This document shows, piece after piece, positions 6,405 through 30,332 of a DNA stretch of 64,000 bases. The stretch comes from Patescibacteria group bacterium (GTDB lineage: Bacteria; Patescibacteriota; Minisyncoccia; Phycocordibacterales; CAIRYW01), in the NCBI GenBank assembly GCA_040389185.1, contig JAZKAJ010000006.1:2914-66913 (forward strand), read 5' to 3'. Each line of letters opens with the position of its first letter. Within the stretch, counting starts at the first letter, position 1. The position numbers and the translations under genes were made by a program. The notes under the pieces are model-generated. The model was not told where the DNA came from. It did not search any database and saw only the letters and a program-made list of their open reading frames with translations.

Positions 6405-7676
6405 ATGAAAAAAATAAATAGTTTATTAGATAAAATAGAGATATTTCTCAAAACCGACATACGGTATCTTTTAAGCGGTGGATTTTGGCTGACAGCAGGC
6501 CAAGTCACCGCTTCACTATCATCCTTCCTTTTATCTATCGCATTTGCAAACCTATTATCGAAGGAGACATTTGGTCAATATAAATATGTCATCTCACTTT
6601 TTGGGATCATTGGAGCTTTATCACTTTCAGGTCTTACTACATCGATCACACAATCTGTGGCCCGAGGATTTGAAGGAGTGTTGGTAAGATCATTTTGGAT
6701 GAGTATGCGATGGGGTTGGCTTCTTACCATCACCTCTTTTGGTATTGCTATTTATTACTACACCCTTGGGAATATTCCCTTAACAGTATCGATGATGCTT
6801 GTTGGGGTTTTTAGTCCACTTCTTTATAGCGCATTGTTTTATAAATCTTTCCTTAACGGAAAAAAAGAATTTAAAACTCTTACATTGTATGGAATCTACT
6901 ACAACATCATTCCAGTACTCTGTATGGTTGGCGTTGTATTCTTTACTGACAATGTCAACGCGGTTGTATTCGCCTACCTCTGCTCAAACACACTCATTTC
7001 TCTATATTTTTTGAATCACGTACTCAAGAAATACAAACCGAATAATAAAGTTGATCCCAAGAGCATGATATTTGGAGCGCATTTAAGTTTTGTAAACGTG
7101 CTTGATACTATAGCAACATATTTGGACAAGATACTTTTGTTTCATTTTCAAGGAAGTATTGATCTTGCAATCTACTCCTTTGCCGTTGCAATACCAGAGC
7201 AGATAAGAAGCCTCCTAAAGATTATTCCCTCTCTTGCAATACCAAAACTTGCAGAAAAAACGAACGATGAGATACAAAGAACCGTTTATCATAAAATTTG
7301 GAAGATCTCACTTATTACTCTTCCGATTGCGATTCTCTATTATTTTGCAGCCCCTTTTATTTATACTTATATTTTCCCTCAATATATAGAATCGATCGCA
7401 TATTCTCAAATATTCATTCTCATTATTCTTGTTGAGGGAGGGCTTCCGGGAGCGGTCTTTAAGGCACAGTTAGCTGTGCGAGAATCTTATATTATGAATA
7501 CTGTGGGCAATCTCATACGAATCGGCATGCTCGTTCCTTTTGTTATATTCTTCGGGATCTGGGGAATCGTATGGGCAAGAATCCTTTCCAGATATGCAAT
7601 ATTTTTCATTTCTCTTTTTCTCCTCAAAAAAATGAAAAAAACTCAAATATCTGATAAGATACAAAACACCCTATGA
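6405..7676 (+). CDS. Wzx-like oligosaccharide flippase (polysaccharide biosynthesis protein, MOP superfamily)
   Basis: 423 aa and about 12 TM helices. N-terminal LLSGGFWLTAGQVTASLSSFLLSIAFANLLSKETFGQY is typical of Polysacc_synt proteins. Confidence 0.7.
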   Translation: MKKINSLLDKIEIFLKTDIRYLLSGGFWLTAGQVTASLSSFLLSIAFANLLSKETFGQYKYVISLFGIIGALSLSGLTTSITQSVARGFEGVLVRSFWMSMRWGWLLTITSFGIAIYYYTLGNIPLTVSMMLVGVFSPLLYSALFYKSFLNGKKEFKTLTLYGIYYNIIPVLCMVGVVFFTDNVNAVVFAYLCSNTLISLYFLNHVLKKYKPNNKVDPKSMIFGAHLSFVNVLDTIATYLDKILLFHFQGSIDLAIYSFAVAIPEQIRSLLKIIPSLAIPKLAEKTNDEIQRTVYHKIWKISLITLPIAILYYFAAPFIYTYIFPQYIESIAYSQIFILIILVEGGLPGAVFKAQLAVRESYIMNTVGNLIRIGMLVPFVIFFGIWGIVWARILSRYAIFFISLFLLKKMKKTQISDKIQNTL

Positions 7677-8413
7677 AAGCAATAATTCTAGCCGGAGGTC
7701 AAGCAACTAGACTTCGTCCTATTACACACAACCTGCCAAAGTGCCTCCTAAAGATTGGTAAAAAGACCATTATCGATTTCCAGATCGAGACCCTACAAAA
7801 AAACAATATCAAAGATATTATTATTGTTACTGGATTCAAAGCAGAACTTTTGAAAGAACATATAATAACAAACTATAGTCAGACAGATATTACATTCACT
7901 TTTGTCTTTAATGAAAAGTATGAGACAACACATGCCGCGCACAGTCTCTGGAGCGCAAGGGATTATTTGACCGATACAACGATTTATTTAAATTCAGATC
8001 TAATCTGTGATCCAATGATTATCAAATCAGTCATTGAAAATAAGAACGATTCCGTCACTGCAATACAACAAAATGATTGGGATGAAGAAGAAGTGAATGT
8101 GATCACTGACGAAAACATGAACGTAGTTGAAATTGGAAAACTGATCCCTGAAAAACTTAGTAAAGGAGAATTTATAGGCGCAACAAAACTCAGCTCTTCT
8201 TTTTTGAATAAATTAATTGAGGTTCTAAATGATATGGTTCAAAAAAATGACACAAAGAAATTTGCAGTGGATGCAATAAACAATGTAATACATTCGAAAG
8301 GAGAAAACCTATACGCATTGGATGTATCACATTATGTTGCGATTGAAATTGACACAATTGAAGATTTTGAAAAAGGCAAAAAACTTTGGGAGCAGTACGA
8401 AATCAAGGGTTAA
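7673..8413 (+). CDS. LicC-like sugar/phospho-headgroup nucleotidyltransferase (NTP_transferase family)
   Basis: MKAIILAGGQATRLRPITHNLPKCLL...IDFQIETL closely matches the LicC (CTP:phosphocholine cytidylyltransferase) N-terminal signature. 246 aa. Confidence 0.7.
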   Translation: MKAIILAGGQATRLRPITHNLPKCLLKIGKKTIIDFQIETLQKNNIKDIIIVTGFKAELLKEHIITNYSQTDITFTFVFNEKYETTHAAHSLWSARDYLTDTTIYLNSDLICDPMIIKSVIENKNDSVTAIQQNDWDEEEVNVITDENMNVVEIGKLIPEKLSKGEFIGATKLSSSFLNKLIEVLNDMVQKNDTKKFAVDAINNVIHSKGENLYALDVSHYVAIEIDTIEDFEKGKKLWEQYEIKG

Positions 8414-8422
8414 TTATTATCC

Positions 8423-9286
8423 TTACTGTGGAGTAAGCACAAGATTAAGCCCTGCTTTCATATCAAAATTAAAATCTACCAATCGATAACTTGGAATATT
8501 GAAAAAAAACAAGAAACTCCGATAAGGAATAATAGCTTGTATTTTGTAGTTTGGAGGAAGAATTTCAAAAATACTTTTCTCATTCTCAAATGTTTTTTTT
8601 GTATCGCTTGAAAACTCCATCATGATAGTTGGACGATTTTTCATTAATGTTTCCCGAAGCCCCAAAAGAACTTCTTTTTCAAATCCCTCAACATCTATCT
8701 TTATGAGATCTATTTTATCGATCTTTTGTTCTTTAAGATAAGTATCTCCTTCCACCACCTGCAATTCCAAAGAGTCTGATGAATTTCGATTGTGAGTAAC
8801 AAAAGATCCTGTGCCCTCATTATCTGTTTCTGGCGGATAATAGGTTAAAGTTTGATCCGTACTCCCTAGTGCCAAGGGATGAACAATGATATTTGAAATA
8901 TGATTGTAAGAAATCTTGTCTACAAGTGAAGATCTTACTTTTTCGTATGGTTCAAAAGAGTGAACGGTCTTGCAATACCTCGAAAGAAAAAGTGAATGAT
9001 GGCCAATGTTAGCTCCAATATCAAGACAAATTGGATCCTTGTACTTCAGTGCTACATCTCTCAAAAGATAGAGTTCACTTTTTTCAAATCCACCATAGAA
9101 ATAGACCTGTGAATCAATATGATTGTGAAGTAATCCTTTATAGTGAAATCCAAAAAAACCTACCTCAAATGGACAAGAGGGATTGGTATTAATCAAAAAA
9201 TTTGCTACCCTATACCTAATCCCGAATCTTACCCAATCTTGCCTGCAGAATAAGCGTCCAAATGACAGAAAGAATTTCATATACAA
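8423..9286 (-). CDS. FkbM-family methyltransferase
   Basis: CLDIGANIGHHSLFLS (SAM motif) and IKIDVEGFEKEVL, both typical of Methyltransf_21/FkbM. Confidence 0.8.
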   Translation of the reverse strand: MYMKFFLSFGRLFCRQDWVRFGIRYRVANFLINTNPSCPFEVGFFGFHYKGLLHNHIDSQVYFYGGFEKSELYLLRDVALKYKDPICLDIGANIGHHSLFLSRYCKTVHSFEPYEKVRSSLVDKISYNHISNIIVHPLALGSTDQTLTYYPPETDNEGTGSFVTHNRNSSDSLELQVVEGDTYLKEQKIDKIDLIKIDVEGFEKEVLLGLRETLMKNRPTIMMEFSSDTKKTFENEKSIFEILPPNYKIQAIIPYRSFLFFFNIPSYRLVDFNFDMKAGLNLVLTPQ

Positions 9287-9318: not shown

Positions 9319-10494
9319 ATGACTCGAATATTTGGCTTTTTAACGGATTGGACTTATTCATTTCTCTCTCACCTCACCCCAAGGAATAAGAATTTGTGGG
9401 TGTTTTGGGGTTGGCACCTTGGTGAAGTAGGAGAACTTTTTGCAGATAATTCAAAGTATTTTTATCTTTATATAAACAATCATCATAAAGAAATACGGGC
9501 AGTCTGGCTGACAGGCTCAAGCGAGACAAAAAAGCGCCTGCAGGCGAAAGGCTTAGAATGCTATCTTTTTTATGAATATAAAGGTGCGCTATCTGCAATG
9601 CTCGCAGGCTTTACAATCATTGATGGACTTATGAGTCGCTCCACTTGGAGATATGCAGGACGAACAAATATAATACAACTCTGGCACGGCAAAGGAATGA
9701 AAAAAGGATTACATCTAAGTCCTTATAATAATTCCAAAAAAAATAATTATTTCATTACACCTCAGCTATTCAAAAGACCGACGAAAATAATAGCCTCATC
9801 AGCATATGCTGGGAAGCTCATGGCATTAATGTTTAATGAACCGATGACGAAGATTATCACAACTGGATTGCCAAGAAACGATGTCTTATTTAAAACTATA
9901 AAAAATAGTGAGGTAGACACGGATCTCGAATTAAAAGAAAGCATCCTCAAAGTAAAACAAGTATGCAAAGGGCTCGTCTTATATGCCCCCACCTTTCGTC
10001 CTGACGGTAAAAACCCATTGGATGCTATCGACTGGGAAGCCTTAAACAGTGATATCAAAGAGGCAAATATATACATCACTGTCTTACTCCATCCAAAATT
10101 TGCCCGCAAAACTCACTCGAAAATGGAAAGTTTTTCAAATATTATCTATGGAAAACCAGGGTTTGATATTTATCCACTTTTAATCAATTTTGATGCACTG
10201 ATAACAGATTATTCATCAATCTATATTGATTATTTACTCCTTGATCGACCTATGATATTTTTTGATTTTGATATTGAGGAATACAAACAAAAAATGGGTC
10301 TTTTTGATGAGTATGCAGAAATGACCCCAGGACCCCATCCAAAAGATCAGAAGGATCTCACTGTCGCAATAAAGGAAGTTATAAAAAATGATACCTTCAA
10401 ATCAGAGAGACAAAGAGTTATGAAACTCCTCCACGAACATACACTCGACGGAAATTCATCCGAAAGAGTATTGAGCGGGATTAAAGGCCTGTAG
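9319..10494 (+). CDS. CDP-glycerol glycerophosphotransferase family protein (TagB/TagF-like)
   Basis: 391 aa. [23 protein letters not shown] and HPKF motifs of the Glyphos_transf family. Confidence 0.8.
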
Positions 10495-11617
10495 CCGCTT
10501 TAGCAATGAGCGCTTCATAGCGCTTTGCAGTTATGCCTATATCATAGTGGCTTGCAGTCTCTATTGCGCACTGACCCATCTCAACTATTTTCAAATAGGA
10601 TCCGTCCATTTTAACGAGTACATCTCTCACACCTTCAGGAGTTCTGTTATCAATAAAATAACCGTTCTTACCTTCACTGATCATTCGGTCAGGACCAGCA
10701 GTTCTCGTTGAAAGGACTGGTAATCCACAAGCAAGAGCTTCAGCGTGCGCAATACCAAAGCCCTCTATATCTGAGGTTGAGATAAAAAAATCTGAGGCAA
10801 TATAATAGCGAAAAATATCCATTTGAGAACCCATCATAAACACCTTACCATTAAGACCGAGATCAACAATTCTTTTTGAAAGAGTTTCTCTTAATGTACC
10901 ATCGCCTAAAATAAGTAATTTATAATCAATATATTCTTTCACAAAAAGATCAAAACCTTCGATGAGTAGTTTCTGATTCTTTTGGGTAGTTAGTCTCCCC
11001 ACATTTATTATCAATCGATCACTATCTTTAAATCCAAGTTCTTTTTTTATTGCGGACTTATTATATGGTTTTATAGTTTCGTTAATTTTTTGAATATCAA
11101 TACCGTTTTGAATCACTTCAAATTTGCTTTCAGAAATGTTTTCCTGTTTTGCAGTAAATTCCTTTACAGTCTCTGAAACTGCCACAATTTTGTAAGTAAC
11201 AAAGGAAAGCCACTTATCAATAAAAATTTCAAAACGGGTCTTTTTGGTGTAGGTATTATGCTCGACAGTAATGATCTTGAATCCTAAAAATAGCTTTATG
11301 ATACGAGTTACGGTGTTAGAGAAAAACAAATGCGATACAACCACGTCTGGGTGAATCTTCCTTAGAGTTCGAAAAAGGGACAACCATCCTTTTATATCTT
11401 TGATGCCCTTCCAAGAAAGTTTTTTTATTTTGATATCTTGAGGAATCAGATCATAGAATGTCTTTTTGCCCTCAAAGGTGATTAAAGTTATCAGGCTATA
11501 GTCGAACTTTTGTCTATCAGCATGATTAAGTACATCCACAATAAGTTTTTGTGCGCCCGCAGCAGTAAAATCATTTATAACTATTACTACCTTTATTTTT
11601 CTATCTTGTTTTTCCAT
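10481..11617 (-). CDS. GT4-family glycosyltransferase
   Basis: Glycos_transf_1 C-terminal domain ([29 protein letters not shown]-x7-E region). Confidence 0.85.
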
Positions 11618-12389
11618 TTTTTAGACCTTCGTAGATACTGATCGCATTTGATAATTTTGTCTTAAATTGGATGAATGATGTTTTTGAATCAATCGAGTTT
11701 CTTTTCAACTTAAAAATGTCATCATGAGTCTTTATCAGTCCACCTTCAACCGTCACTGCCCCACTCCATTCATTGTCCCTTAGGTAATCAATTATAGCAT
11801 CAGTATATCTACCCTTAGGATATGCAAAAATATCTGCCTTAGCTAAAGTTAGGCTTTCAATGTATTTTCTTGATTCTGATATTTCAGAGGCAGCGATTTC
11901 AAACGAAACCTTATCAAGTACTACATGGTGTGCAGTATGAGGCATTAATTCTGCAACATCTTTGTCTTGAGCAAGCTCTGCAAGCTCACTGTTTTTCATA
12001 AGCGATATCTCCACCCCATCACTTGTTCTCATTGTCTTATTGATATTTTGGGTTGCAATAAAAAATGTAGCTTTTATCCCTAATTCCTTGAGGATGGGAT
12101 ATGCAATCTCAAAATTATCTTTGTAACCGTCATCAAAAGTAATACACACAGTATTCTTGAATTGCTCACTTTTTTTCATTTTATCGATCAATTCTGATAT
12201 GAAAATAATATTATATCCATTATCCTTTATATATTGCATCTGTCTCCCAAATGCTTCTTTTGTGACAGTAAAATAAGCATTGTTATCACCTATCGAGTGA
12301 TACATGAGTATCGAGCATCCACTATTCCTCTTGCCACATAGAGCAAAGAGAATAAAACAGATCAGGTCTTTGAGAGACTGCTTTAACAT
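11601..12389 (-). CDS. polysaccharide deacetylase (CE4 NodB-type)
   Basis: ITFDDGYKDN (motif 1) and HTAHH (His motif). Confidence 0.85.
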   Translation of the reverse strand: MLKQSLKDLICFILFALCGKRNSGCSILMYHSIGDNNAYFTVTKEAFGRQMQYIKDNGYNIIFISELIDKMKKSEQFKNTVCITFDDGYKDNFEIAYPILKELGIKATFFIATQNINKTMRTSDGVEISLMKNSELAELAQDKDVAELMPHTAHHVVLDKVSFEIAASEISESRKYIESLTLAKADIFAYPKGRYTDAIIDYLRDNEWSGAVTVEGGLIKTHDDIFKLKRNSIDSKTSFIQFKTKLSNAISIYEGLKNGKTR

Positions 12390-13426
12390 ACAATTTTTTG
12401 AATAAGGGATTTTAAACTATGTTGCTCAAGCACTATACTTCGAAGCATCACACCTATTTCTTTTTTGGTTTCCTTATCTAACAGATGGATCTGTTTTATT
12501 TTCTCTGCGAGATCGATTGCATCATTTTCGTTGAACATTAGAATACTGTGCCATTTTTTTGGAAAGATATTTTCATATGACCGGTTTGAAACAAGTGCGA
12601 GCCCCCCGCACGCCATCATCTCAAGAATCACTTTATCAAATGAACCAGTTGGCGTGAGATTCACCAACACTCCATGAGAATTATATATCTCTACTGTTTT
12701 GTTGTTTGGAACAGAACCAGGAAATGATACAAGATTTCGTTCTTCTATTTCCTTTGCTTTTTCTTTCAAGTTTTCAAAATAGCCTTTTTCAGAATCCACT
12801 TTAACAGGACCACCATAAAGATCTGCCTTAAAGGTATCGCTTTCTTTTGAGAGAAGGAGAAGTGATTCAACAAGTATTTCCACTTTTTTAATTGATGAGA
12901 TTCGCCCCAAATAAAGCAAAGGTGAATCAGATCTTTGATCATCATGATTGTCCCTAAAGTAATCTGTATCAATACCAGCAGGCATGATCTCAGTTTTTTT
13001 GAACTTTGCAGTAAATGAAAACTCTGAAGTACAAAATACCCTATCGGAAAGAAATACCGCGAGCTTTGTTTTCCAAGTGCCATTCGGATGATTTCTCCAC
13101 ATGAATATCTTTTTACCCCGAAGCTTCCAAATAAGGGCACCAAGTAGCACGTATTCTTGGTTCATATGTACAAATACTGTGTCATATGTGCTGTTCATAG
13201 AAATGATTCTCTTATAAAAATTTGAAATGTATGAGAACCTTGACTGTTTCGTCTCTTTTCCAAGTGAAAAAACTGGAATCGATTTTGGAAGGCTATTTAC
13301 CCCCTTTTCCAAGCAGATCACAGAAACACTCGATACTTTTTTTTCAAATTCCTCCACCCAACGGATAAAGAATCCTAAAACATCATCATCTTTATCTATC
13401 TTTTGGGTTATAACAAGTAATTTCAT
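12383..13426 (-). CDS. GT4-family glycosyltransferase
   Basis: GT-B fold, EMMACGGLALVSN glycos_transf_1 signature. Overlaps both neighbours. Confidence 0.75.
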   Translation of the reverse strand: MKLLVITQKIDKDDDVLGFFIRWVEEFEKKVSSVSVICLEKGVNSLPKSIPVFSLGKETKQSRFSYISNFYKRIISMNSTYDTVFVHMNQEYVLLGALIWKLRGKKIFMWRNHPNGTWKTKLAVFLSDRVFCTSEFSFTAKFKKTEIMPAGIDTDYFRDNHDDQRSDSPLLYLGRISSIKKVEILVESLLLLSKESDTFKADLYGGPVKVDSEKGYFENLKEKAKEIEERNLVSFPGSVPNNKTVEIYNSHGVLVNLTPTGSFDKVILEMMACGGLALVSNRSYENIFPKKWHSILMFNENDAIDLAEKIKQIHLLDKETKKEIGVMLRSIVLEQHSLKSLIQKIVC

Positions 13427-14274
13427 ATGTTTTCGCCATAGACACCGCGAAGGAGATGTAAATCTTTATGTGTTTTTTTGAGTAATTCAATATTTTTTTC
13501 TTCCATTGCCCTGAGCATTTGTATACCTTTTTCATCCTTTGTGTGTATAGAATAAAACTTTGAAAGTGCGGCGAAATCTTTAATAAAACATTCACCCCCT
13601 GCTCCTCTACCTGATTTGTGTAGTGCATTTGCATAAGTTGGTCCATTATCTGGATCTGCAGATATCGCTTTTTTGATATTTTCATAATCTACACCGAAAC
13701 TTTCTGTCAAATCATGGAAAATGTTTGCCATAAGTACTCGTGCGTATCCAATAGAGTTTCTTGCGTATTTGATAAGCTCAGCTTCTGTTGAGTCGCATAT
13801 AAGCTCAAAAGGTGCTTCAGGAAGGATTTCCATAACCCCTCTTGCAATATCTTTATGCTTTTCATCGTTTAAAGGAATACCAATAATATTTCTCGCAGGA
13901 TTTGAGGCATCATATTTTGCGGTTGCAACAGACAGAAACTCAGGGTTGACCAAAACAACAATATCTTTGAAATCTACTTGGATCTTTTTTAAGGTTCCTG
14001 GTAAAAGGGTTGATTTGATTACGGCAACCTTATCCTTACCCACCAGTTTTAATGCCTCTCTCACAATTGAATCATCAAACTCGCCGTGTTTTGTTGGTGT
14101 AGGAACAGCAACAAAAACGAGATCGCAATCCTTTATCATGTCTTTATTCATCACATACTCCTTTTCCAAGGAATATCTAACCACCGTTAAACCACGCTCC
14201 TCAAAATCATCAGAATAATTCTTACCAATCCATCCCTGTCCTATGAATCCAATTTTTTTATTTTTAAAGTCCAT
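13423..14274 (-). CDS. UDP-glucose/GDP-mannose dehydrogenase-family protein; only the N-terminal NAD-binding and central domains
   Basis: GFIGQGWIG Rossmann motif and catalytic-Cys motif GRGAGGECFIKD. Stops at 283 aa where the next gene starts, so no C-terminal UDP-binding domain is present. Confidence 0.65.
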   Translation of the reverse strand: MDFKNKKIGFIGQGWIGKNYSDDFEERGLTVVRYSLEKEYVMNKDMIKDCDLVFVAVPTPTKHGEFDDSIVREALKLVGKDKVAVIKSTLLPGTLKKIQVDFKDIVVLVNPEFLSVATAKYDASNPARNIIGIPLNDEKHKDIARGVMEILPEAPFELICDSTEAELIKYARNSIGYARVLMANIFHDLTESFGVDYENIKKAISADPDNGPTYANALHKSGRGAGGECFIKDFAALSKFYSIHTKDEKGIQMLRAMEEKNIELLKKTHKDLHLLRGVYGENI

Positions 14275-14293: not shown

Positions 14294-15643
14294 TTATTCT
14301 CCTCCGCTTCCTGGGATGAGTGTGAGCACTTCTTTGATCGGCATACAAAGCTTTTCTGCATTGCCAGCGCTCCCGTCCTCTAGGATCATCTCAGCCACCT
14401 TTGTCATCGCGGGATATGCACTTCGAAGAAGTTGATTAGCATAGATCACGACATTTACTCCCGCTTTTTCTAGTTCGTCCTCAGTGACAGAAGAATAGGT
14501 ACTTGGCACAACAGCAAGCGGAACTCTGTTCTTGAATTTTTTGTACTCTTTGCAGAATTCAAATATTTCCGTCGGCTCCTTTTCTTTGCTGTGAATAAGG
14601 ATCCCGTCAGCACCTGCCTCGATATATGCTTTTGCACGAGTAAGTGCGTCTTCCATACCCTGCTTTAAAATGAGACTTTCTATTCGAGCAAAGATCATAA
14701 AATGATTGGTTACCTGAGCCTTTTTACCCATAGAGATCTTGTAGCAAAAATCTTCAATGCTGTCCTGAATCTGATTTGCCCCTGTTCCAAAAAGTGAATT
14801 CGCTTTAAGACCTTTCTTGTCTTCAATAATAACTGCTGATGCGCCCAATCGCTCCAACGTCTTTACCATAAGTGCAAAGTGTTCTGGGAATCCTCCGTTA
14901 TCCGCATCTACAATCATTGGCTTTGTTGTTACATCAAATATCTGATCGATAGTACTTTGTCTTGAAGTAAAATCAACAGAACCATTATCAGGCTTTCCTT
15001 TTGCAACAGAATCAGTGAGCGAAGAAAGCCACATTCCATCAAATTCTGACGCTTTTTCTTCTTTTGAGATTTTGGTCTTTTCTACAATTCTCCCAGTAAG
15101 ACCATTGTGGACTTCCATAATTCTTATAAGCGGCTTTACAGATAAGTATCTTCGAAGAAGCTTCATTCGTGTCTCAGGTGTAACACCTTGTCCAACGAGC
15201 CCCTCTATAAGATTGGTAGTTGATGGAATACTTTCTATTCGCTTAGGCTCAACCAATTCACCCCCGTATTCATTTAAAATTTCTATTACTTTTTTTCTTT
15301 TTTCTGATTGAACGCTTTCCTTCCAGTCATCGCCATGAACAAAATAATCTGGTTTTAATTTTCGAAGATTTGGCTCAAAATCGTGAACTTCTTGAAGCAT
15401 TACCGAATCAACCCCGACAATACTCTCAATGATCTTCTTTCGCTGATCATAAGTAGATAACGGCACTCTTTTGTATGTAGCTATAGCTTCGTCGCTCAAA
15501 AGCCCGATAACAACTTTCCCGAGTTTTCTTGCCTCATTGATAATGTAAATATGACCATAATGAATAAGGTCCACTGCCATTGGCAAATAAACAACCTTCT
15601 CTTTTTTATCGTTATCCTGGCTAGTTTTTTTAGTCTTTTTCAT
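14294..15643 (-). CDS. bifunctional cytidylyltransferase / phosphoenolpyruvate phosphomutase (Fom1-like CyTase-Ppm fusion)
   Basis: N-terminal HxGH nucleotidyltransferase domain (VVYLPMAVDLIHYGHIYII). C-terminal ICL/PEPM fold with IVDADNGGF and the Ppm-diagnostic EDK-X5-NS motif (VIIEDKKGLKANS). GADGILIHS is also present. Confidence 0.8.
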   Translation of the reverse strand: MKKTKKTSQDNDKKEKVVYLPMAVDLIHYGHIYIINEARKLGKVVIGLLSDEAIATYKRVPLSTYDQRKKIIESIVGVDSVMLQEVHDFEPNLRKLKPDYFVHGDDWKESVQSEKRKKVIEILNEYGGELVEPKRIESIPSTTNLIEGLVGQGVTPETRMKLLRRYLSVKPLIRIMEVHNGLTGRIVEKTKISKEEKASEFDGMWLSSLTDSVAKGKPDNGSVDFTSRQSTIDQIFDVTTKPMIVDADNGGFPEHFALMVKTLERLGASAVIIEDKKGLKANSLFGTGANQIQDSIEDFCYKISMGKKAQVTNHFMIFARIESLILKQGMEDALTRAKAYIEAGADGILIHSKEKEPTEIFEFCKEYKKFKNRVPLAVVPSTYSSVTEDELEKAGVNVVIYANQLLRSAYPAMTKVAEMILEDGSAGNAEKLCMPIKEVLTLIPGSGGE

Positions 15644-15689: not shown

Positions 15690-16622
15690 TTAAACTAACT
15701 CAGCAGTAAAAGTTTTTTTACTTAATAATTCATTGTAGAGCATTGACCACTCTGCACTATATTTTTTAAATTCTTCAACTTCTTTTTCATCCCAGATTTT
15801 CTCTTTGTTATGCCATGGCTTTATGCCCTTTTTCTGCATCTTCTTGATCTCTTTTTCACTCAAGATCGGTGTCAATCCAAACTCTTTTGCCACATTCTTA
15901 TAGTAGCCATAATAATCCTGTCTTGCTTCATTCAATTTAAATATAAAGATCTTCTCTTTTGGAATTTCTTTCAACTGTTCCCAAATATCTTTATTCATCT
16001 TATTTCCCCACCACGCGATCTTTCCGACTCGAGTGAGACCATCCCATTCTCTATAGAATTCTCCGTTAGGCACCAGTCGTCCAAAGAGATAAAGCCAATA
16101 CCATTTCTGTGGAAAGTTAGGTTGAAACCCGAGTGCCATATCGACATTATCTCGCACATATTTGTGCTCAAAAAATCCCTTATTGTAAATCGATTGGACT
16201 GTAAACTTTGGATCATTGATCGCAAAGATGATTCGTTCAGGTCGAAGCAAAGTATTGAGTTCTACAATCCCATGTGAAAAGAAAGGGCTGATAACAAGCG
16301 CAATATCTCCTTTTTTCCAATCTTCAACAATGCCGTGCTTTATAAGCTTTATGATCCCTGCAGTATCAATCGGTAGTTTGTTGTATTTTATGTATCGATA
16401 GAAACATTCCGGCTCAAAATATCTTTCAGTGATTCCTGTTGCATTTGTATGCAAATTAAAAATATCTCCAAGCAAACGTGTGCCAGAGCGAGCCGCTAAA
16501 GTACAAAGAATTAACTTTTTCCCAGCCTGAAGTCCTTTTTCGTATTCCAAATCAACTGATTCAAGTATTTTGGAATCGAGACCTCCCCTATCCCATGAGA
16601 TCAAAAGCTTTCCTATTTTCAT
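15690..16622 (-). CDS. sulfotransferase-fold family protein
   Basis: 5'-PSB-like CTLAARSGTRLL and 3'-PB-like FAINDPKFTVQSIY motifs. 310 aa. Confidence 0.5.
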   Translation of the reverse strand: MKIGKLLISWDRGGLDSKILESVDLEYEKGLQAGKKLILCTLAARSGTRLLGDIFNLHTNATGITERYFEPECFYRYIKYNKLPIDTAGIIKLIKHGIVEDWKKGDIALVISPFFSHGIVELNTLLRPERIIFAINDPKFTVQSIYNKGFFEHKYVRDNVDMALGFQPNFPQKWYWLYLFGRLVPNGEFYREWDGLTRVGKIAWWGNKMNKDIWEQLKEIPKEKIFIFKLNEARQDYYGYYKNVAKEFGLTPILSEKEIKKMQKKGIKPWHNKEKIWDEKEVEEFKKYSAEWSMLYNELLSKKTFTAELV

Positions 16623-16629: not shown

Positions 16630-17760
16630 TTAGATGATGGTGTTTAGTATTAATCTTGCGTCTATGAGGGTCATATTTCTCGGATTATTCTTCATTCGTT
16701 CTATCGATGCTTCCTTGAGAATCAGATCGATATCCACCGGCTTCAATTTATCAAAATTCACCTTAAGTCCTATTGCATTAAAAAGTTCATCTAGTGTTTC
16801 TGATGCTTCTTTTGGGGTCTTAGTGCCTAGTATCTCGACGATCTCATCGATCGTCCCCTTTACATAACTTACTCCCCGAGGATCGTTATTATTTTCTTCA
16901 TTAACCTCGCTATTATATATCAAAATCTGAGGCAGAGTAAGAGATACTGCCTGGCCGTGCGGAATGTTGAAATGGGATGTAAACGGATAAGAAAGGGCGT
17001 GGCAAGCGGTAGTTTTTGAGATATTAATAGCCTTTCCTGCCAAGTGCGAACCTTTTGCTATAATTTCTCGAAGTTTTTGATCTGGTTTTAATACCACATC
17101 TTTCAAATTTGGATATAAAAGAGATAGAGCTTCTCTTGCATACTCTTTTGATTCTTCAGTTGAAGCAACAGACCACAATGATTCAATCGCCTGACAAAGT
17201 GCATCAGCACCTGCCTGTGCCGTAATCTCTGCATTTAAATTTGATGTGAGTAGTGGATCAACGATTGAAATAGTAGGTAAGATCTTTTGATCGGCAAGCG
17301 AATATTTTGTTGTATCAATATAAACCACTGCAAAATGTGTTGCCTCGCTTCCAGATCCAGATGTAGTAGGAATCGCAACAAGCGGCAAGCCATTTGTTGT
17401 TAATTTTTTTTCTCCTTTAATACAATCTTCCAAATCACCCATCTGAAACGAAAGTATATTTACAAGTTTTGCCATATCGATCACACTGCCACCTCCAACT
17501 GCAACAACTATATCAGGAACAAATTTTTTAAACTCTTCTATCCCCTTTTTTACATCTATAATATTTGGATTTGATTTGAAATCAGAGAATTGAAAAACAT
17601 TCTTACCTTGAAAGATAGACTCTAATTCTTTTTCTGCCCCCGATTCTTTGAACGAATTTTTGCCCGTTACAAGAAAGATCCTTTCGCTTTTTAAATTGCT
17701 TAGGACCTCTTCAAGTTTTTTAATGCTACCATTCCCAAAATATTCTACTTGTTTTTCCAT
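16630..17760 (-). CDS. iron-containing (group III) alcohol dehydrogenase; candidate phosphonoacetaldehyde reductase (FomC/PhpC-like)
   Basis: VAVGGGSVIDMAK and a metal-binding His-rich C-terminal half. Sits between Ppd and the Ppm fusion. Confidence 0.75.
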   Translation of the reverse strand: MEKQVEYFGNGSIKKLEEVLSNLKSERIFLVTGKNSFKESGAEKELESIFQGKNVFQFSDFKSNPNIIDVKKGIEEFKKFVPDIVVAVGGGSVIDMAKLVNILSFQMGDLEDCIKGEKKLTTNGLPLVAIPTTSGSGSEATHFAVVYIDTTKYSLADQKILPTISIVDPLLTSNLNAEITAQAGADALCQAIESLWSVASTEESKEYAREALSLLYPNLKDVVLKPDQKLREIIAKGSHLAGKAINISKTTACHALSYPFTSHFNIPHGQAVSLTLPQILIYNSEVNEENNNDPRGVSYVKGTIDEIVEILGTKTPKEASETLDELFNAIGLKVNFDKLKPVDIDLILKEASIERMKNNPRNMTLIDARLILNTII

Positions 17761-17762
17761 TT

Positions 17763-18893
17763 CTAATTATTCAAAAAATTCATAAAATCGTTCTTATTCT
17801 CTAAAGGAGTTCTTGTTGGTCTCCCAAGATCTTTTCTTGCACCAGGTGTTACAAGGATTTCCATAAGAATTGGTCCTTCAAGTTTTTCAATCTCTTTAAA
17901 ATTAACCTTGATGTCATCCTCTGTTTTTGAGCAAAAAACATGTTTGTAATTTGAAGCTTTTGCGATAGATCCAAAATCCATCACTGTTGCGGCTGTCGGT
18001 TGACCACCTACAGAATCGTGCACCTTATTATTAAAGACAATATGTATAAAATTCTTTGGTGCAACCTTGCCCGCAGTACCATATGCACCAAGATGCATTA
18101 TAGATGCGCCATCACCATCAAAACAATATACTTTTTTCGTAGGCTTCGCGATTGCAATACCAAGTGCGATCGAAGATGCGTGACCCATACCTCCAACAGT
18201 GAGAAAATCTCGGTCGTGTGTGTCATTATTTTTTACTCGAAGTTCAAACAGCTCTCTTGAGAGCTTACCTGTAGTACCGACAACGACAGCATCTCTTGAG
18301 ATCAATTCAATAACACTCTTCAATGCATCTTCGCGACTGATTGTGATATCACTTGAAATATTTTTCTTTGATCCTTCGTAGTTTGAAAATGTACCGCTCT
18401 TTACTACAAGTGCATACGGCGCTGAATTCTCTATCATTATTTTATATGCTTCTTGTACAGCAACCTTGGCCTCCTCATCATTATCAGGAAGAATTTTGTA
18501 CGGAACTCCCATTACCTCAAGCATTGAGAGCGTGATCTTTCCTTGTTTTTTATGCTGTGGTTCATCTGGAACCCCTTCTTCACCTCTCCATCCCACAAGC
18601 AAAAGAATGGGTACAGAATATATTTCTGGATCAGCAAGAGAGACCAGTGGGTTTAAGGTATTACCGAGACCAGAATTTTGAAGATAGACAAGGCCGATCT
18701 TTTTTGAGGCAAGATAATATCCCATTGCCAGAGCAACCGCATTCCCTTCGTTAGCAGCAATGATATGTTTATCTTCTGAAACATTATCATTCACAAACCC
18801 GCAGAAATCCTTCAAAAGCGAATCTGGCACACCAGCAAAAAATTCAATATTATTCTCTGCAAGCGCTTCAAAAAATGATTTGGGTGATACCAT
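17763..18893 (-). CDS. ppd: phosphonopyruvate decarboxylase (TPP-dependent)
   Basis: 376 aa, about the size of Ppd. N-terminal FAGVPDSLLKDF and the TPP-binding region GDGASIMHLGAYGT...NN. Next to PEP mutase. Confidence 0.8.
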   Translation of the reverse strand: MVSPKSFFEALAENNIEFFAGVPDSLLKDFCGFVNDNVSEDKHIIAANEGNAVALAMGYYLASKKIGLVYLQNSGLGNTLNPLVSLADPEIYSVPILLLVGWRGEEGVPDEPQHKKQGKITLSMLEVMGVPYKILPDNDEEAKVAVQEAYKIMIENSAPYALVVKSGTFSNYEGSKKNISSDITISREDALKSVIELISRDAVVVGTTGKLSRELFELRVKNNDTHDRDFLTVGGMGHASSIALGIAIAKPTKKVYCFDGDGASIMHLGAYGTAGKVAPKNFIHIVFNNKVHDSVGGQPTAATVMDFGSIAKASNYKHVFCSKTEDDIKVNFKEIEKLEGPILMEILVTPGARKDLGRPTRTPLENKNDFMNFLNN

Positions 18894-18934: not shown

Positions 18935-20047
18935 TTACTCCCTATTTTTATTTGCCCTTCGAGTCATAATTCCCTGCCAAGATTTGAGATAGTCTTTCAA
19001 AGTTTCATCAAGTGATAGCAATTTGTTACAGATCTTATTATTATTTTCTTTCACTATTTTTCGAAAATTCTTGTTCTTGATCATTTCTATCATTGCATTT
19101 ACTAAAGCATCTTTATTGTTTACGGGGATCACGAGTCCATTTTCTTTATCACCGATCACTTCGTGAGCACATCCAACATCAGTCATAATAACTGGCAAGC
19201 CAAAGCACGCAGCCACGATCGGTGCTAGTCCGTACCCTTCTGCATTCGAGGTCAAAAGAAAACAATCAGATCGAGCGAAAAAGAGTGTTACATCACTCAC
19301 AAATCCTTCAAATAAAACCGAATCTTCAAGTCCTAATCGCTCAACCAACGAAACAAGATTATTTTTTTCAATTCCCTCACCCAGAATCATTAATTTTGTA
19401 TTAGGATATGATTGAAGAACTTCTTTCATTGCTTCAATTTGAAGAGGTATATTCTTGATCGGTACAAGCCTGCTTGCTGTCACAAAAGTTAAATCCTCAT
19501 CTTGTTCTAACCGAGCTGCAGCTGCAACGGCTTTTGCCTTTGTTTCAGCACAATCAACAAAAATTGGAACAACTGTAATAACCTCTTCTTTAATATTAAA
19601 ATTCTTTATGAGGTCTTTTTTTAGCCTATTACTTACCGCTCGAATACCGTCCGCTCTTTTGAGTACAAATCGCGCAATTGCTTTTCGTACTGGATTTAAT
19701 TTTTCAAAGCCGTGTACCTGAATCTCAAGACCCAAAGAATTTCGTCTGGAGAGATAAAGTGCAAGAAGTCCTAAAAAGTAAGGGTCTCTCGTTGTAATGA
19801 GATCGTATCCATTTTTTTTTATTATTTTTTTTGCAAGACCAAGTATACGAAAAAGGTCAGAGATCTTATTAGTTTTTTTTATGCTGTAGACCATGACTTT
19901 GTCTGTAATAGGTGTCTCAGATGCACAAGGTGCTGGGACAATAATATCGTGTCGGCCCGTTAATTCTCCATAGAGCTTGAATCGCTCGCTAAGTGGCGAA
20001 TTTTTATCGAGAACCGTTGCATCAAGACCTATTGTGAGTATTTTCAT
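18935..20047 (-). CDS. GT4-family glycosyltransferase
   Basis: Glycos_transf_1 signature SNAEGYGLAPIVAACFGLPVIMTDVGCAHEVI. Confidence 0.85.
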   Translation of the reverse strand: MKILTIGLDATVLDKNSPLSERFKLYGELTGRHDIIVPAPCASETPITDKVMVYSIKKTNKISDLFRILGLAKKIIKKNGYDLITTRDPYFLGLLALYLSRRNSLGLEIQVHGFEKLNPVRKAIARFVLKRADGIRAVSNRLKKDLIKNFNIKEEVITVVPIFVDCAETKAKAVAAAARLEQDEDLTFVTASRLVPIKNIPLQIEAMKEVLQSYPNTKLMILGEGIEKNNLVSLVERLGLEDSVLFEGFVSDVTLFFARSDCFLLTSNAEGYGLAPIVAACFGLPVIMTDVGCAHEVIGDKENGLVIPVNNKDALVNAMIEMIKNKNFRKIVKENNNKICNKLLSLDETLKDYLKSWQGIMTRRANKNRE

Positions 20048-21135
20048 AGCACTTTCTTTAACTCAATAATAGTATTTTCAAAGGAAAACTTCTTTGATCG
20101 AAGTATCGCATTTGCCGATAGTCGTTCCATCATCGCCCTATCGCTTCGAAGCTTATTTATGAGAGGTATCATGCCATAAGGTTCGGTACTCTTAAACAAA
20201 AGTCCCGATACACCGTCTTCAACTATTTCCTTCAGACTTCCAGAATCTGCCGATACGATCACACATCCCAAAGCCATAGCTTCCACCACCTGAAAAGAGA
20301 AGCTCTCAAATCCAGAATTTAAGACAAAAATATCTGATTCAGACATGAGGGATAGAAGCTTTTCGCGTGGAAGTCGCCCTGTGATATTTACAGCATGCTC
20401 AAGTCCGAGTTTCCCTGAGAGATCTTCTAATTCATTTTTGCATGGGCCGTCACCGACGATAATAAGCTTCGCGTTTAAAATATTCTTTCTGACCTCGGCA
20501 AATGCATTTATAAGTTCGCCAAATCCTTTCCATGGAACAAGCCTTCCTGCACTGATTAAAACAAAATCATTGTTTGAGTTATTTTTTTTTCTTTCTATAT
20601 TTATTTTCTCGATCCCGTTGTAGATCACGTGTAGTCTTTCTTCTTTAACTCCCCATTTAGACACTACGGTCTTAAAGTAATGACTCGGCACTATCACAAT
20701 ATCCGAATACTTTGCAACAAAAAATTGTACTCTTCTTATGAATCCGAGCATTCCACCAGATTTAGTATCTTGAAAATGATCAATATCTTCTTTGACACCA
20801 AATCGCTGAACTCCTTGCTCCCAGGCATAATCCCCAGGCACGCGAAGTATCATTTTCTTTCGAAGAATCTTTGAGACCATGAGTGCAGGCAAACCAACGC
20901 TTACTGTATCCTGAATAAACAAAACATCAACACCAAATCCTAATAAAAAAAGTTTAGTAAAATAAATAGAGTGTCTCAATACTTTTGGATACTTTCTGAC
21001 AACATCAAAAGAGAGCACTTTTACATCGAAGCCTTCTTGCGGGAGCAGATCATTTAGAAGTTTGGCATAGGTAGCAGGCCCTCCAATTGAAGGCGGGTAA
21101 ATTCCTGTAGCGATGAGAATTCTTTTAGTAGTCAT
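20044..21135 (-). CDS. GT4-family glycosyltransferase
   Basis: N-terminal IATGIYPPSIGGPATYAKLL and C-terminal glycos_transf_1 VEAMALGCVIVSADSGSLKEIV. Confidence 0.85.
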   Translation of the reverse strand: MTTKRILIATGIYPPSIGGPATYAKLLNDLLPQEGFDVKVLSFDVVRKYPKVLRHSIYFTKLFLLGFGVDVLFIQDTVSVGLPALMVSKILRKKMILRVPGDYAWEQGVQRFGVKEDIDHFQDTKSGGMLGFIRRVQFFVAKYSDIVIVPSHYFKTVVSKWGVKEERLHVIYNGIEKINIERKKNNSNNDFVLISAGRLVPWKGFGELINAFAEVRKNILNAKLIIVGDGPCKNELEDLSGKLGLEHAVNITGRLPREKLLSLMSESDIFVLNSGFESFSFQVVEAMALGCVIVSADSGSLKEIVEDGVSGLLFKSTEPYGMIPLINKLRSDRAMMERLSANAILRSKKFSFENTIIELKKVL

Positions 21136-21137: not shown

Positions 21138-21170
21138 AGTCAAAAGTCTTAAAGTCTTAAAGTCGAAAGT
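21138..21170. repeat. left inverted repeat flanking the four-helix-bundle gene
   Basis: agtcaaaagtcttaaagtc[ttaaagtc]gaaagt is the reverse complement of 21536..21560, with an 8-nt internal duplication. Confidence 0.7.
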
Positions 21171-21517
21171 TATCTGATTTTTTTAATAAATCCTTGAATC
21201 ATCCTAGAAATTTCAATTGATGATTCATACATTCGAGTAAACTCAGATTGATTGATATATTTAAATTCTAAAGCCAAATAAAGCATTGATCTAACTTCTC
21301 CACACGAACCCTTTGAAATATAAAGAAATCTTGCAAATTCTTTATCGCCCATTCTTTCGTAGCCTTCGGCAATATTATTCATAATAGAGACAGAGGCAGA
21401 CTGAATCTGATCTCGAAAACGAAAGTCATTCAATTTACCAAATAATTTATAGACCAAAATTGTTAATTCTTTTGCTTTTTGCCAAATTAAAATATCTTCA
21501 AACTTTTCTATTTTCAT
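21170..21517 (-). CDS. four-helix-bundle protein (23S rRNA intervening-sequence protein family)
   Basis: 115 aa. MNNIAEGYERMGDKEFARFLYISKGSCGEVRSMLYLA is the hallmark of the IVS-protein family. Confidence 0.85.
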   Translation of the reverse strand: MKIEKFEDILIWQKAKELTILVYKLFGKLNDFRFRDQIQSASVSIMNNIAEGYERMGDKEFARFLYISKGSCGEVRSMLYLALEFKYINQSEFTRMYESSIEISRMIQGFIKKIR

Positions 21518-26771: not shown

Positions 26772-28541
26772 TTATTGAATTTCAAGAATTCTCTTCAAAA
26801 TATCTTCTGGCACTTCCTTTTTTTCTTCCTGCTTTATTTCGGGTTTGATAGGTTCTTTTCTTTCTGGAGCTTTTTCTTGTACTGGAGAATGTCGCACTTC
26901 AACTGATCTAGGTTCACTTTTTGGGGCACTTTCAATATCATCTGATGATACAACAGATGCAAGAGCACTTCTGAGTTCTGCTAAATGTTCTTCAGAAGGT
27001 AATTTCTTTTCTTTAGGTTTTTGATTGGTTTGCCTGAGATAGCTAAGCGACACTGCTTTTCGAAGATCTCGCTCCCTATCATATGCCGGATCTCTTTTTT
27101 GTTCAGTGGGTTGTGAAGATGGTTGTACTGGTTTTGGTGCCGGAGCTTTGCCTAATACTGCTGCAAGCGCTTGATCTATTGGACTTGGTCGAGAACCAAA
27201 TTTTTTGTTACGATCGTCTCTTCGATTTTCTGAGGCAGAGATCTGAGCTTCTTCGTGCCAAGCTTTGATCTCATTTTCAACATCAGCACGAGGACGAGCA
27301 AATGTTTTTCGTGATTCAGCAATTATTTCTTCACGCATATTGTGCTCTGGCTTTGCGAGCGGAGGAAGTGTTGTAGCAGAGAAAGGTCGTGATGATACAC
27401 CATCGATCATAAGCTTTAGATAAATCTGTGCAAATCCAAGAGATACTAAGTCTTGCGCTGTAAAATAAGGTCCATACTCTTTTTCTAGAAATTCAGCATC
27501 AAAAGCACCGACTCGAAACGTAATCATTGTTCCGACGTTACCAAATACCGCAGCACGTACCTCTTCAGTCATCTGTTCGATATATTGATGTGCTACAGTC
27601 AGGTTCAATTTATATTTTCGAGCTTCAGAAAGAATATCTGCAAAAGATTCATTGGCAAAGTTCTGGAACTCATCTACATAAAGATAAAAGTTTGGAAGTG
27701 CATCAAGTTCAGCCTCTCTTTTGTCTGCGCGACTCATTGCTGCAAGATAAATCTTGGTGATGAGCATTGCTCCTAAAAGGTTTGCATTCGCTTCTCCCAC
27801 AAGACCTTTGGAAAGGTTCATGATAAGGATTTTCTTCCCGTCCATCATTTCTCGGATATCAAAAGTAGACTTTGGCTGGCCTATAATATTTCGAATCAAT
27901 GGATTAGAAATGAACTGACCAATCTTATTTTGAATTGATGCACCCGCTTCCTGCATATACTTTGGACCATACTTCGCAAACTCGTCCACCCAAAAAGACC
28001 TAACCGACGGATCAGTAATGTGTTCAATCACTTTTTTACGATAGTCTTCATCAGCTAAAATTCTATTTACACCAATCAGTGTTGAATCTGGATACTCGAG
28101 AAGTGCCAAGAGAATATTATTCAAAATATATTCCATTCTAGCGCTCCATGCATCCACCCAGATCTTTTTGAAAGCAGACATGAGTCCGTTTGCAACGAGA
28201 TGTCTCTTGTCAGGCCCTACATCTTCAAGCACATTGAAAGAGATCGGGTTATCGAGATCAAATGGCGCAAAATAAAGAACATCCTTCATTCGCGATTCAG
28301 GAACATATTCCAAAAGAAGATCGGCGGTCTTGCCGTGAGGATCGAGAAATGCCAGACCTCTTCCATCTTGGATATCTTGAACTGCGAGATTTTCGAGTAG
28401 AGTTGATTTACCCATACCAGTCTTACCAATGACGTAGGTATGGCGAGAACGATCTTTAATTTTGATACCAAAACGAAGTTTGCGATTGCGCGCATCTGTT
28501 TCGGCAAAATATACAACTTTGTTAGGATCTTCAGGATTCAT
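26772..28541 (-). CDS. P-loop ATPase of the TraD/VirD4/TrwB (type IV secretion coupling protein-like) / FtsK-HerA superfamily; soluble, with a low-complexity K/E/P-rich C-terminal tail
   Basis: Walker A YVIGKTGMGKSTLLENL, Walker B LYVDEFQNF, and the GxxxFxxxD/AHQ region of T4SS-type ATPases. No N-terminal TM helices. Confidence 0.55.
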   Translation of the reverse strand: MNPEDPNKVVYFAETDARNRKLRFGIKIKDRSRHTYVIGKTGMGKSTLLENLAVQDIQDGRGLAFLDPHGKTADLLLEYVPESRMKDVLYFAPFDLDNPISFNVLEDVGPDKRHLVANGLMSAFKKIWVDAWSARMEYILNNILLALLEYPDSTLIGVNRILADEDYRKKVIEHITDPSVRSFWVDEFAKYGPKYMQEAGASIQNKIGQFISNPLIRNIIGQPKSTFDIREMMDGKKILIMNLSKGLVGEANANLLGAMLITKIYLAAMSRADKREAELDALPNFYLYVDEFQNFANESFADILSEARKYKLNLTVAHQYIEQMTEEVRAAVFGNVGTMITFRVGAFDAEFLEKEYGPYFTAQDLVSLGFAQIYLKLMIDGVSSRPFSATTLPPLAKPEHNMREEIIAESRKTFARPRADVENEIKAWHEEAQISASENRRDDRNKKFGSRPSPIDQALAAVLGKAPAPKPVQPSSQPTEQKRDPAYDRERDLRKAVSLSYLRQTNQKPKEKKLPSEEHLAELRSALASVVSSDDIESAPKSEPRSVEVRHSPVQEKAPERKEPIKPEIKQEEKKEVPEDILKRILEIQ

Positions 28542-28580
28542 ATCATAGATATTATACCCTAAAATTTTGCTAAGATGAAA

Positions 28581-29762: not shown

Positions 29763-29768
29763 TGTAAT

Positions 29769-30332
29769 TTATTTTGCCTTACTTGTCGTCGCAGTTGCTT
29801 TGGGAGTAGGCTTAGTCTGAACTTTAGTATCTGCTGATGCACCAAGCGCACTTCCAGGAGCGGAAGAAAGGGGTCCAATATTTATGATTTTATTGATTGA
29901 TGGTCGATAAAGTACCGCTCGCATAGCAGCGGGAAAGATAACAACATCATCACCATTTTGTGCATCATTAAAAAATGATTGATCTTTGAGCTTTGTAATA
30001 TCAGAAACAGTAGCGAGCACCGCATTTGGATCATTTGGTACTACAGCTAGCTCTGAAATTTGTTTGATGACCTCTGCAGTCTTTTCTTTGGCAACAGCAT
30101 TTGGATCTTTGGTTAGTTTTTTATATTGCAAAAAATAATAAACCAAGCCGAGAGCTAAGGCAATAAAGAGAAGTATAAGTAAGTTTTTCTTTGTAACGAG
30201 TTTTTTTATTTTTTGCATTTTGCTGGTTTTGTTATTTGTTAAAACAATTTCTTCGTTATCAATGTTCATCCCCCCTGTTGGCACACCCCTACTTCGAGTA
30301 CGAACTAATTTAGGTTTTTCTTTATTTTCCAT
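29769..30332 (-). CDS. hypothetical single-pass (N-in) membrane protein
   Basis: About 55-aa basic cytoplasmic N-terminus, TM helix LLILLFIALALGLVYYF, then about 110 aa outside the cell ending in a T/A/K-rich tail. Confidence 0.45.
   Translation of the reverse strand: MENKEKPKLVRTRSRGVPTGGMNIDNEEIVLTNNKTSKMQKIKKLVTKKNLLILLFIALALGLVYYFLQYKKLTKDPNAVAKEKTAEVIKQISELAVVPNDPNAVLATVSDITKLKDQSFFNDAQNGDDVVIFPAAMRAVLYRPSINKIINIGPLSSAPGSALGASADTKVQTKPTPKATATTSKAK

Follow-up and report, generated by a model that had tools for sequence, protein, structure and literature searches.

Phosphonate-decorated glycans are widespread, and the steps that follow the formation of a cytidine monophosphate (CMP)-linked phosphonate were called unknown in a 2019 survey of nucleotidyl activation, which pointed to LicD-like candidates (PMC6697681). 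In the Campylobacter jejuni O-methyl phosphoramidate (MeOPN) pathway, encoded by Cj1415-Cj1418 together with the transferases Cj1421/Cj1422, a cytidine nucleotide serves to activate a small phosphorus head group, which is afterwards placed onto a capsule sugar, with 3'-phospho-5'-cytidine diphosphoramidate as a named intermediate (PMC6429109). In the fosfomycin route, which includes the cytidylyltransferase fusion protein Fom1, the cytidylyl group is transient, and a radical-SAM methyltransferase and a hydrolase act after its attachment. The TagF family (PF04464) uses cytidine diphosphate (CDP)-glycerol or CDP-ribitol and releases CMP. A literature search found no description of an enzyme with the sulfotransferase fold that acts on CMP-phosphonates, CDP-alcohols or cytidine diphosphoramidates, and no enzyme assigned to moving an activated phosphonate onto a sugar. 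A candidate for such an enzyme is encoded by the minus-strand open reading frame (ORF) at positions 15690-16622 of a 64,000-nucleotide stretch (hereafter the window) from a metagenome-assembled genome of a Patescibacteria bacterium (Candidate Phyla Radiation, CPR). The most economical reading, unproven and given here a probability of about 0.6, is that the product of this ORF moves 2-hydroxyethylphosphonate (HEP) from CMP-HEP to a glycan. An initial annotation of the window had proposed that a sulfotransferase-type fold was recruited here for a CMP-phosphonate, and this idea is supported by four independent computed lines, found in the protein itself, in the gene neighborhoods of its clade, in fused proteins and in its more distant relatives.

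The ORF reads off at the coordinates first reported, starts with ATG and encodes 310 amino acids (aa), identical to the NCBI entry 'hypothetical protein V4469_01260'. Searches with the single sequence show nothing: the protein matches no Pfam or NCBIfam family at E<=10, including PF00685, PF13469 and every other curated sulfotransferase model as well as the PF04464, LicD and CDP-alcohol phosphatidyltransferase models, and a sequence search of the PDB is likewise empty. A search of 5.8 billion proteins returned 64 homologs at 40-100% identity, mostly from CPR and all annotated as 'hypothetical'; weak SspH2 and GNAT matches of the close-family profile were dismissed as chance. By contrast, the sulfotransferase fold put forward in the initial annotation is borne out by the AlphaFold2 model, built with the homolog alignment (pLDDT 90.2, pTM 0.88). 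In a Foldseek search of the PDB with this model, the first 31 matches are all sulfotransferases, including TPST2, TPST1, heparan-sulfate N- and 3-O-sulfotransferases, Stf1, Stf9, the CurM sulfotransferase and schistosome sulfotransferases, with a best E of 2e-6 (TPST2, 3ap3), TM scores of 0.45-0.52 and identities of 12-16%.

The wider family, comprising 294 clusters in a profile search of 1.8 billion cluster representatives, provides a second route to the same fold. A profile of 94 diverse family members (profile A2) matches TPST1/2 in the PDB with E values of 5e-4 to 3e-3 and no other PDB protein, and distant members give weak matches to Pfam Sulfotransfer_3 and Sulfotransfer_1, which are sub-threshold or borderline. 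Taken together, the structural model and these transitive sequence links support a sulfotransferase fold for the 310-aa protein. A kinase role was rejected, given the RSGT loop in place of a Walker A GK[ST] and the ranking of sulfotransferases above adenylate kinases in the fold search. No hydrophobic segment is present, which led us to reject a location in the membrane or outside the cell (maximum Kyte-Doolittle value over 19 residues, KD19, 1.38), and the protein is proposed to be a soluble, cytoplasmic group-transfer enzyme.

The catalytic elements of the fold can be placed on the protein as follows.

16479-16490, minus strand: phosphate-binding loop R45-S46-G47-T48, equivalent to the 5'-phosphosulfate-binding (5'-PSB) loop of sulfotransferases (A2 profile alignment)
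16425-16427, minus strand: E66, predicted catalytic base (invariant in the clade; the A2 column 'hE' pairs with TPST1/2 'GEE')
16179-16220, minus strand: I135-K148, strand, turn and helix matching the 3'-phosphate-binding (3'-PB) motif of sulfotransferases (S144 and K148 conserved, N136 in place of the Arg)

The initial annotation had recognized the 5'-PSB motif in ARSGTRLL (residues 44-51), and R45-S-G-T indeed aligns with 'PRSGTT' of TPST1/2, the A2 profile segment 'GtGRsGt' pairing with TPST 'GVPRSGTT'. Every clade member has R45, its conservation in the wider family being at least 90%, and G47 is invariant in both. E66, 21 residues after R45, corresponds to the Glu in TPST1/2 'GEE', the catalytic base in TPST2; H58 (16449-16451) is also invariant. 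Among sulfotransferases, the base is a His in cytosolic enzymes and a Glu in TPST and the heparan-sulfate enzymes. The second proposed motif, INDPKFTVQSIY (residues 135-146), stood as to its location and its Ser and failed as to its defining residue. The A2 profile segment 'vRdpekvVnSlynK' pairs with TPST VRDGRASVHSMISR, the AlphaFold2 model places a strand at 130-135 and a helix at 138-147, and S144, eight residues after position 136 and invariant in the clade, pairs with the TPST 3'-PB Ser; what is missing is the 3'-phosphate-binding Arg, expected where the strand leading to the Ser helix ends and replaced there by N136. The TPST counterparts of R45, N136 and S144 are, in turn, the 5'-phosphosulfate-loop Arg and an Arg-Ser pair holding the 3'-phosphate of 3'-phosphoadenosine-5'-phosphosulfate (PAPS). 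The protein thus shares with TPST1/TPST2 and Sulfotransfer_3 (PF13469) the 'RSGT' loop, the Glu 21 residues on and the strand-helix with its conserved Ser, and is set apart from TPST1/TPST2 by its low identity, by the lack of a match to any Pfam sulfotransferase model, by Asn in place of the 3'-phosphate Arg and by a gene context of nucleotide-activated phosphonate synthesis rather than PAPS synthesis. As marks of a canonical sulfotransferase, the initial annotation had named a Lys in the 5'-PSB and a catalytic His; the protein carries the TPST-type Arg/Glu pair instead, so that the presence of intact catalytic residues cannot tell sulfuryl from phosphonyl transfer. Judged from the alignment, the machinery for in-line transfer from a 5'-nucleotide anhydride is kept, and the Arg that would read a 3'-phosphate is gone.

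These similarities also lend themselves to another explanation, which we consider unlikely, namely that the protein is a highly diverged but ordinary PAPS-dependent sulfotransferase acting on a surface glycan or on a free hydroxyl of a HEP or glycerol head group, its link to cytidylyltransferases reflecting only a shared decoration pathway. The fold, PSB loop, Glu base and 3'-PB Ser are all sulfotransferase-like, and the weak Pfam matches of distant members point the same way. The distribution of the missing Arg argues against it. Among 144 non-identical family members, position 136 is Arg in 101 and Asn, Ser, Ala or Thr (Pro in one) in 43. The 43 non-Arg sequences are those closest to the window protein, include every homolog from the fetched loci at >=36% identity, and fall within a single clade of 44 tips in a neighbor-joining tree. 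This clade without Arg at 136 (>=36% identity) is referred to here as N-type, and the Arg-retaining relatives as R-type. Conserved residues specific to the N-type are W102, N147, F228, A233 and N272, and those specific to the R-type are G42, R136 and W206, while R45, G47, S144, K148, G149, R182 and P185 are common to both. The first of the four lines is therefore a sulfotransferase-like fold and catalytic loop in which the Arg for the PAPS 3'-phosphate has been lost in exactly the N-type clade, being missing in every clade member and present in every outgroup member.

In the window, the N-type gene lies within a set of phosphonate biosynthesis genes.

17763-18893, minus strand: phosphonopyruvate decarboxylase, Ppd (TIGR03297, 472.8 bits against a cutoff of 312.5)
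16630-17760, minus strand: Fe-dependent alcohol dehydrogenase, Fe-ADH (PF00465/PF25137; TIGR03405 185 bits, below cutoff)
15690-16622, minus strand: candidate CMP-HEP:glycan phosphonyl transferase, 310 aa, N-type clade (ORF, AlphaFold2 model, Foldseek)
14294-15643, minus strand: cytidylyltransferase-phosphoenolpyruvate (PEP) mutase fusion, CyTase-Ppm (PF01467 + PF13714; TIGR02320 389 bits; HYGH, EDKKGLKANS)

The expected features of the phosphonate pathway are all present (an EDKxxxxxNS Ppm, Ppd, Fe-ADH and an HxGH cytidylyltransferase). CyTase-Ppm has the Fom1 architecture (PF01467 + Ppm), as in Fom1/PntC, and is predicted to make phosphonopyruvate and, like Fom1 (precedent cited in PMC6697681), CMP-HEP. 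Fe-ADH is the predicted phosphonoacetaldehyde reductase yielding HEP, on the basis of its position after Ppd and of the PhpC precedent (PMC8942020). The methyltransferase and hydrolase genes of the fosfomycin route are absent here; unlike in that route, the genes stand in a glycan locus, where CMP-HEP would be expected to serve as a transfer donor. The placement of the ORF between Fe-ADH and CyTase-Ppm with tight spacing, as first described, holds: the gap is 7 nt to the upstream Fe-ADH gene and 46 nt to the downstream CyTase-Ppm gene, and no terminator-like hairpin was found on the minus strand between 19283 and 12668.

The second line is the association of the N-type clade with cytidylyltransferase genes, whether or not Ppm is present. 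It was studied in 71 fetched loci (numbered with L below), in which pathway genes were located by tblastn, blastp and Pfam. A PF01467 cytidylyltransferase lies within 0-3.2 kb of the N-type gene in 17-18 of about 30 distinct N-type loci. Together with HEP genes, the N-type ORF occurs in two gene orders, Ppd-FeADH-ORF-CyTasePpm and CyTasePpm-Ppd-FeADH-ORF, in CPR and, outside CPR, on a Pseudohongiella chromosome (L015). In L011, the N-type ORF (68% identical) overlaps a stand-alone 158-aa CyTase, and Ppm, Ppd and Fe-ADH are absent. Stand-alone TagD-like CyTases are also paired with the N-type gene in L007, L026, L033, L037 and L038. In addition, an aminoethylphosphonate (AEP) cluster in L031 holds an N-type gene alongside Ppm fused to a MobA-like nucleoside triphosphate (NTP) transferase, Ppd, a second NTP transferase and a class-V aminotransferase, and a PF00483/PF12804 nucleotidyltransferase lies <=1 kb from the N-type gene in L030 and L032. 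The association thus holds where the head group has no hydroxyl (L031) and where the phosphonate genes are gone but the CyTase stays (L011), both of which speak against an ordinary PAPS-dependent sulfotransferase.

Some N-type loci have further contents of their own. In L010 (3994-5313), the domain joined to the cytidylyltransferase is a degenerate PEP-mutase-like one, which shares 25% identity with the window Ppm and falls below the Pfam cutoff. Its contig has no Ppd and no Fe-ADH, and this may be a decaying phosphonate module. In L032 (8388-12505), the N-type homolog is flanked by a pyridoxal-phosphate-dependent (PALP) enzyme, an Ldh_2-family dehydrogenase and a MobA-like NTP transferase, and the head group that is activated on a nucleotide here may be a different one, possibly an acid of the lactate or sulfolactate type. 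In L007 (7038-8972) and L037 (8049-9893), the CyTase and N-type genes have an asparagine-synthetase-like amidotransferase (GATase_7 + Asn_synthase) beside them, and L038 (2079-3923) has a gene of equal size at the same setting, the domain scan covering L007 and L037 only. The amidotransferase hints at an amidated head group or acceptor in the stand-alone-CyTase group.

The third line comes from two proteins in which the partners are joined in one polypeptide, with a TagD-like CyTase at the N-terminus and an N-type sulfotransferase-like domain at the C-terminus (L029, 1720-3096, and P0182). The two share 56% identity through the linker as well as both domains, which shows that the fusion did not arise from an assembly error, and they represent two independent cases in diverged proteins. 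Such a fusion in two lineages is a further point against an ordinary sulfotransferase.

The R-type relatives, from which the fourth line is drawn, are found in different surroundings, and no PF01467 gene was found near them in the fetched loci. The nearest R-type group is about 33% identical to the window protein and includes one member named Candidatus Pelagibacter ubique; among the matches listed in a profile search for this group, at least 120 in number, all are close marine relatives. In marine SAR11-type contigs, the R-type gene stands at the end of a cassette encoding an APS-kinase-like protein (APS, adenosine 5'-phosphosulfate), a 776-aa PPDK_N/PEP-utilizers protein, a Peptidase_C26 amidohydrolase, an FkbM methyltransferase and an NTP_transferase. 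The full cassette is present in L052 (3299-10795), L048 (3289-10831) and L044 (4249-10778), and a partial one in L045, L046 and L051. The divergent APS-kinase-like genes were missed by phmmer with the L007 CysC domain and were found by motif scan and blastp. The C. jejuni MeOPN pathway, Cj1415-Cj1418, has this same set of genes (PMC3907429; PMC6429109), which suggests phosphoramidate decoration of glycans outside Campylobacter with the R-type gene as the candidate transferase. In a second R-type context (L041, 7300-10837), an orthologue 62% identical to the SAR11 one follows an APS kinase, an ATP sulfurylase and a pyruvate-kinase-barrel protein. The barrel domain is also fused to a sulfotransferase-like domain in another protein (P0175), and a third (P0201) appears to have a C-terminal extension resembling that of P0175. 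Both R-type contexts supply 3'-phosphorylated donors, and the Arg is kept, whereas N-type contexts supply plain CMP- or CDP-linked donors without a kinase, and the Arg is lost.

The MeOPN-like cassettes raise a further alternative, in which the N-type donor is itself a cytidine nucleotide with a 3'-phosphate, like that of the O-methyl phosphoramidate pathway; a kinase gene located elsewhere would provide for its synthesis, and residues other than the canonical Arg would bind the 3'-phosphate. The R-type sister group resides in just such Cj1415-1418-like cassettes. However, no APS-kinase-like gene was found in the window or in any N-type phosphonate locus, and the canonical Arg is lost specifically in the N-type clade, so that this alternative is highly improbable. 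Like the C. jejuni system, the locus would activate a small phosphorus head group on a cytidine nucleotide before transfer to a sugar; unlike it, the window lacks a glutamine kinase, a gamma-glutamyl amidohydrolase and an APS-kinase-like gene of the MeOPN type, and the donor would have no 3'-phosphate.

The supply of PAPS bears directly on the ordinary sulfotransferase. The initial annotation had seen no PAPS-synthesis genes in the window, and tblastn of the 64-kb window with Sat, two APS kinases, CysC, CysN and CysD agrees, giving a best E of 5e-4 that reflects the P-loop only. PAPS genes were likewise absent from about 25 N-type loci (up to 10-kb flanks), with the exception of L007, which also holds a canonical Sulfotransfer_3 gene that could account for its CysD and CysN/C. 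In favor of a PAPS donor, the L041 relatives adjoin ATP sulfurylase and APS kinase, and CysD and CysN/C share a contig with the N-type gene of L007; the search for PAPS genes covered the window and the fetched loci. An unrelated second sulfotransferase-like gene (L005, 10955-11785, minus strand, 276 aa, weak Sulfotransfer_3 match) is convergent to the N-type gene in a HEP cluster, and through such a neighbor some glycans of N-type loci may carry sulfate too. For the glycan of the window, the variant offered in the initial annotation, that it is both sulfated and phosphonylated, has less support than phosphonate transfer.

The phosphonate genes are embedded in a surface-glycan locus, which contains a second candidate for the transfer step.

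18935-21135, minus strand: two family 4 (GT4) glycosyltransferases (GT), upstream and co-directional (Pfam)
10481-14274, minus strand: downstream set of a short UDP-glucose/GDP-mannose-dehydrogenase-like protein (283 aa), a GT, a polysaccharide deacetylase and a GT4 (Pfam)
9319-10494, plus strand: TagF-like CDP-glycerol glycerophosphotransferase family protein (PF04464, 192 bits)
8423-9286, minus strand: FkbM-family methyltransferase, between the NTP_transferase and TagF-like genes (PF05050)
7673-8413, plus strand: NTP_transferase (PF00483)
6405-7676, plus strand: Wzx-type polysaccharide flippase (PF01943/PF13440), marking a surface-glycan locus

The TagF-like protein is the only head-group transferase of a known type in the window; no LicD or CDP-alcohol transferase was found among the Pfam-scanned genes in and around the glycan locus. 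The rival account in which the TagF-like protein transfers HEP from CMP-HEP, and the sulfotransferase-fold protein handles or hydrolyses the CMP-phosphonate or modifies the acceptor, draws on the shared glycan locus, on the CDP-linked donors of the family and on the presence of a TagF-like gene beside the cluster in L001-4, L008, L009, L011 and L013. The attack of an alcohol on the distal phosphorus with release of CMP, predicted here for the N-type protein, is the reaction of TagF/TarL (PF04464), LicD and CDP-alcohol phosphatidyltransferases, from which that protein differs in its unrelated fold and lack of any sequence match. Two observations make this account quite improbable. First, no TagF-like gene is present within 10 kb of the HEP genes in L005, L012, L014, L015, L016 and L024, while the sulfotransferase-fold gene is always adjacent; in L005, no TagF, LicD or other known head-group transferase accompanies the HEP genes, leaving the N-type gene and its weak Sulfotransfer_3 neighbor as candidates. 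Second, the TagF-like gene travels with its own NTP_transferase, the two being contiguous, overlapping and on one strand in L001 and L011, and it persists in L011, where Ppm, Ppd and Fe-ADH are absent. The NTP_transferase at 7673-8413 is thus the likely donor-making partner of the TagF-like gene.

Several other genes of the window were observed in passing. The FkbM methyltransferase at 8423-9286 has family members in the phosphoramidate-like cassettes of L048 and L052, which makes it conceivable that it O-methylates the transferred phosphonate to a MeOPN-like methyl ester. The dehydrogenase-like protein (13423-14274, minus strand, 283 aa) contains part of the N-terminal domain and the central domain only; its gene is unlikely to be a pseudogene, since a 279-aa counterpart is conserved at the same position in L011, where the whole downstream set is found 3' of the homolog. 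A gene of the '23S rRNA intervening sequence protein' family (21170-21517, minus strand; PF05635, E 1e-33) separates the glycan locus from the Mur ligase genes. Further away (26772-39777, minus strand), genes for a 589-aa homolog of TraG/VirD4-like coupling proteins and for a 704-aa protein carrying three Laminin_G_3 repeats stand together with two unannotated ORFs and an ORF of 2427 aa; the stretch may be a surface or secretion module.

Several points weigh against transfer of HEP from CMP-HEP by the N-type protein. S144 and K148 of the 3'-PB helix are still conserved, so that some 3'-phosphate binding could remain, a feature shared by the alternatives with PAPS and with a 3'-phosphorylated cytidine donor. 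The CysN/C and CysD genes of L007 lie 6.6 kb and 8.6 kb upstream of the N-type gene, and genes for sulfation occur in related loci (L007, and L005 with its weak Sulfotransfer_3 match). The TagF-like gene is 5 kb from the target ORF, and its family is known to use CDP-linked donors. In two N-type loci (L017 and L018, 10-kb flanks), tblastn finds no PF01467 cytidylyltransferase, the Pfam scan there covering two to four immediate neighbors each. Finally, a gene fusion shows a shared pathway and not consecutive steps, and Ppm-CyTase itself joins steps that are not consecutive.

For phosphonyl transfer by the N-type protein, the following course can be proposed, its donor, acceptor and chemistry being read from sequence, model and gene context. 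Ppm, Ppd and Fe-ADH would provide HEP, which the CyTase domain fused to Ppm would convert into CMP-HEP. The R45-S-G-T loop would grip the 5'-phosphate of CMP, and E66 would deprotonate a sugar hydroxyl on a growing lipid-linked glycan made by the neighboring GT4 enzymes. The sugar oxygen would then attack the phosphonate phosphorus in line, and CMP would leave as 3'-phosphoadenosine 5'-phosphate does in sulfuryl transfer. The loss of the 3'-phosphate-binding Arg (N136 here) would follow from CMP having no 3'-phosphate, and with the switch to this donor the clade would have gained its specific residues W102, N147 and N272.

At about even odds, the N-type clade as a whole represents an unrecognized class of sulfotransferase-fold enzymes that decorate surface glycans with head groups taken from CMP-phosphonates (HEP, AEP) and probably from CDP-alcohols. 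The fold and the type of chemistry are known; the donor class would be new. If this holds, the N-type clade would supply the missing transferase step of phosphonate tailoring and, together with the R-type relatives in phosphoramidate and PAPS cassettes, would make one fold a general platform for sulfuryl, phosphoramidyl and phosphonyl transfer from 5'-nucleotide anhydrides, in which the presence or absence of a single Arg reports whether the donor carries a 3'-phosphate. The N-type signature (RSGT loop, Glu base, no 3'-PB Arg, N147/N272) would then provide a rule for annotating 'hypothetical' genes, of which CPR, Omnitrophota and marine bacteria hold hundreds, and the clade would illustrate clearly how an enzyme of the sulfotransferase fold can switch its donor.

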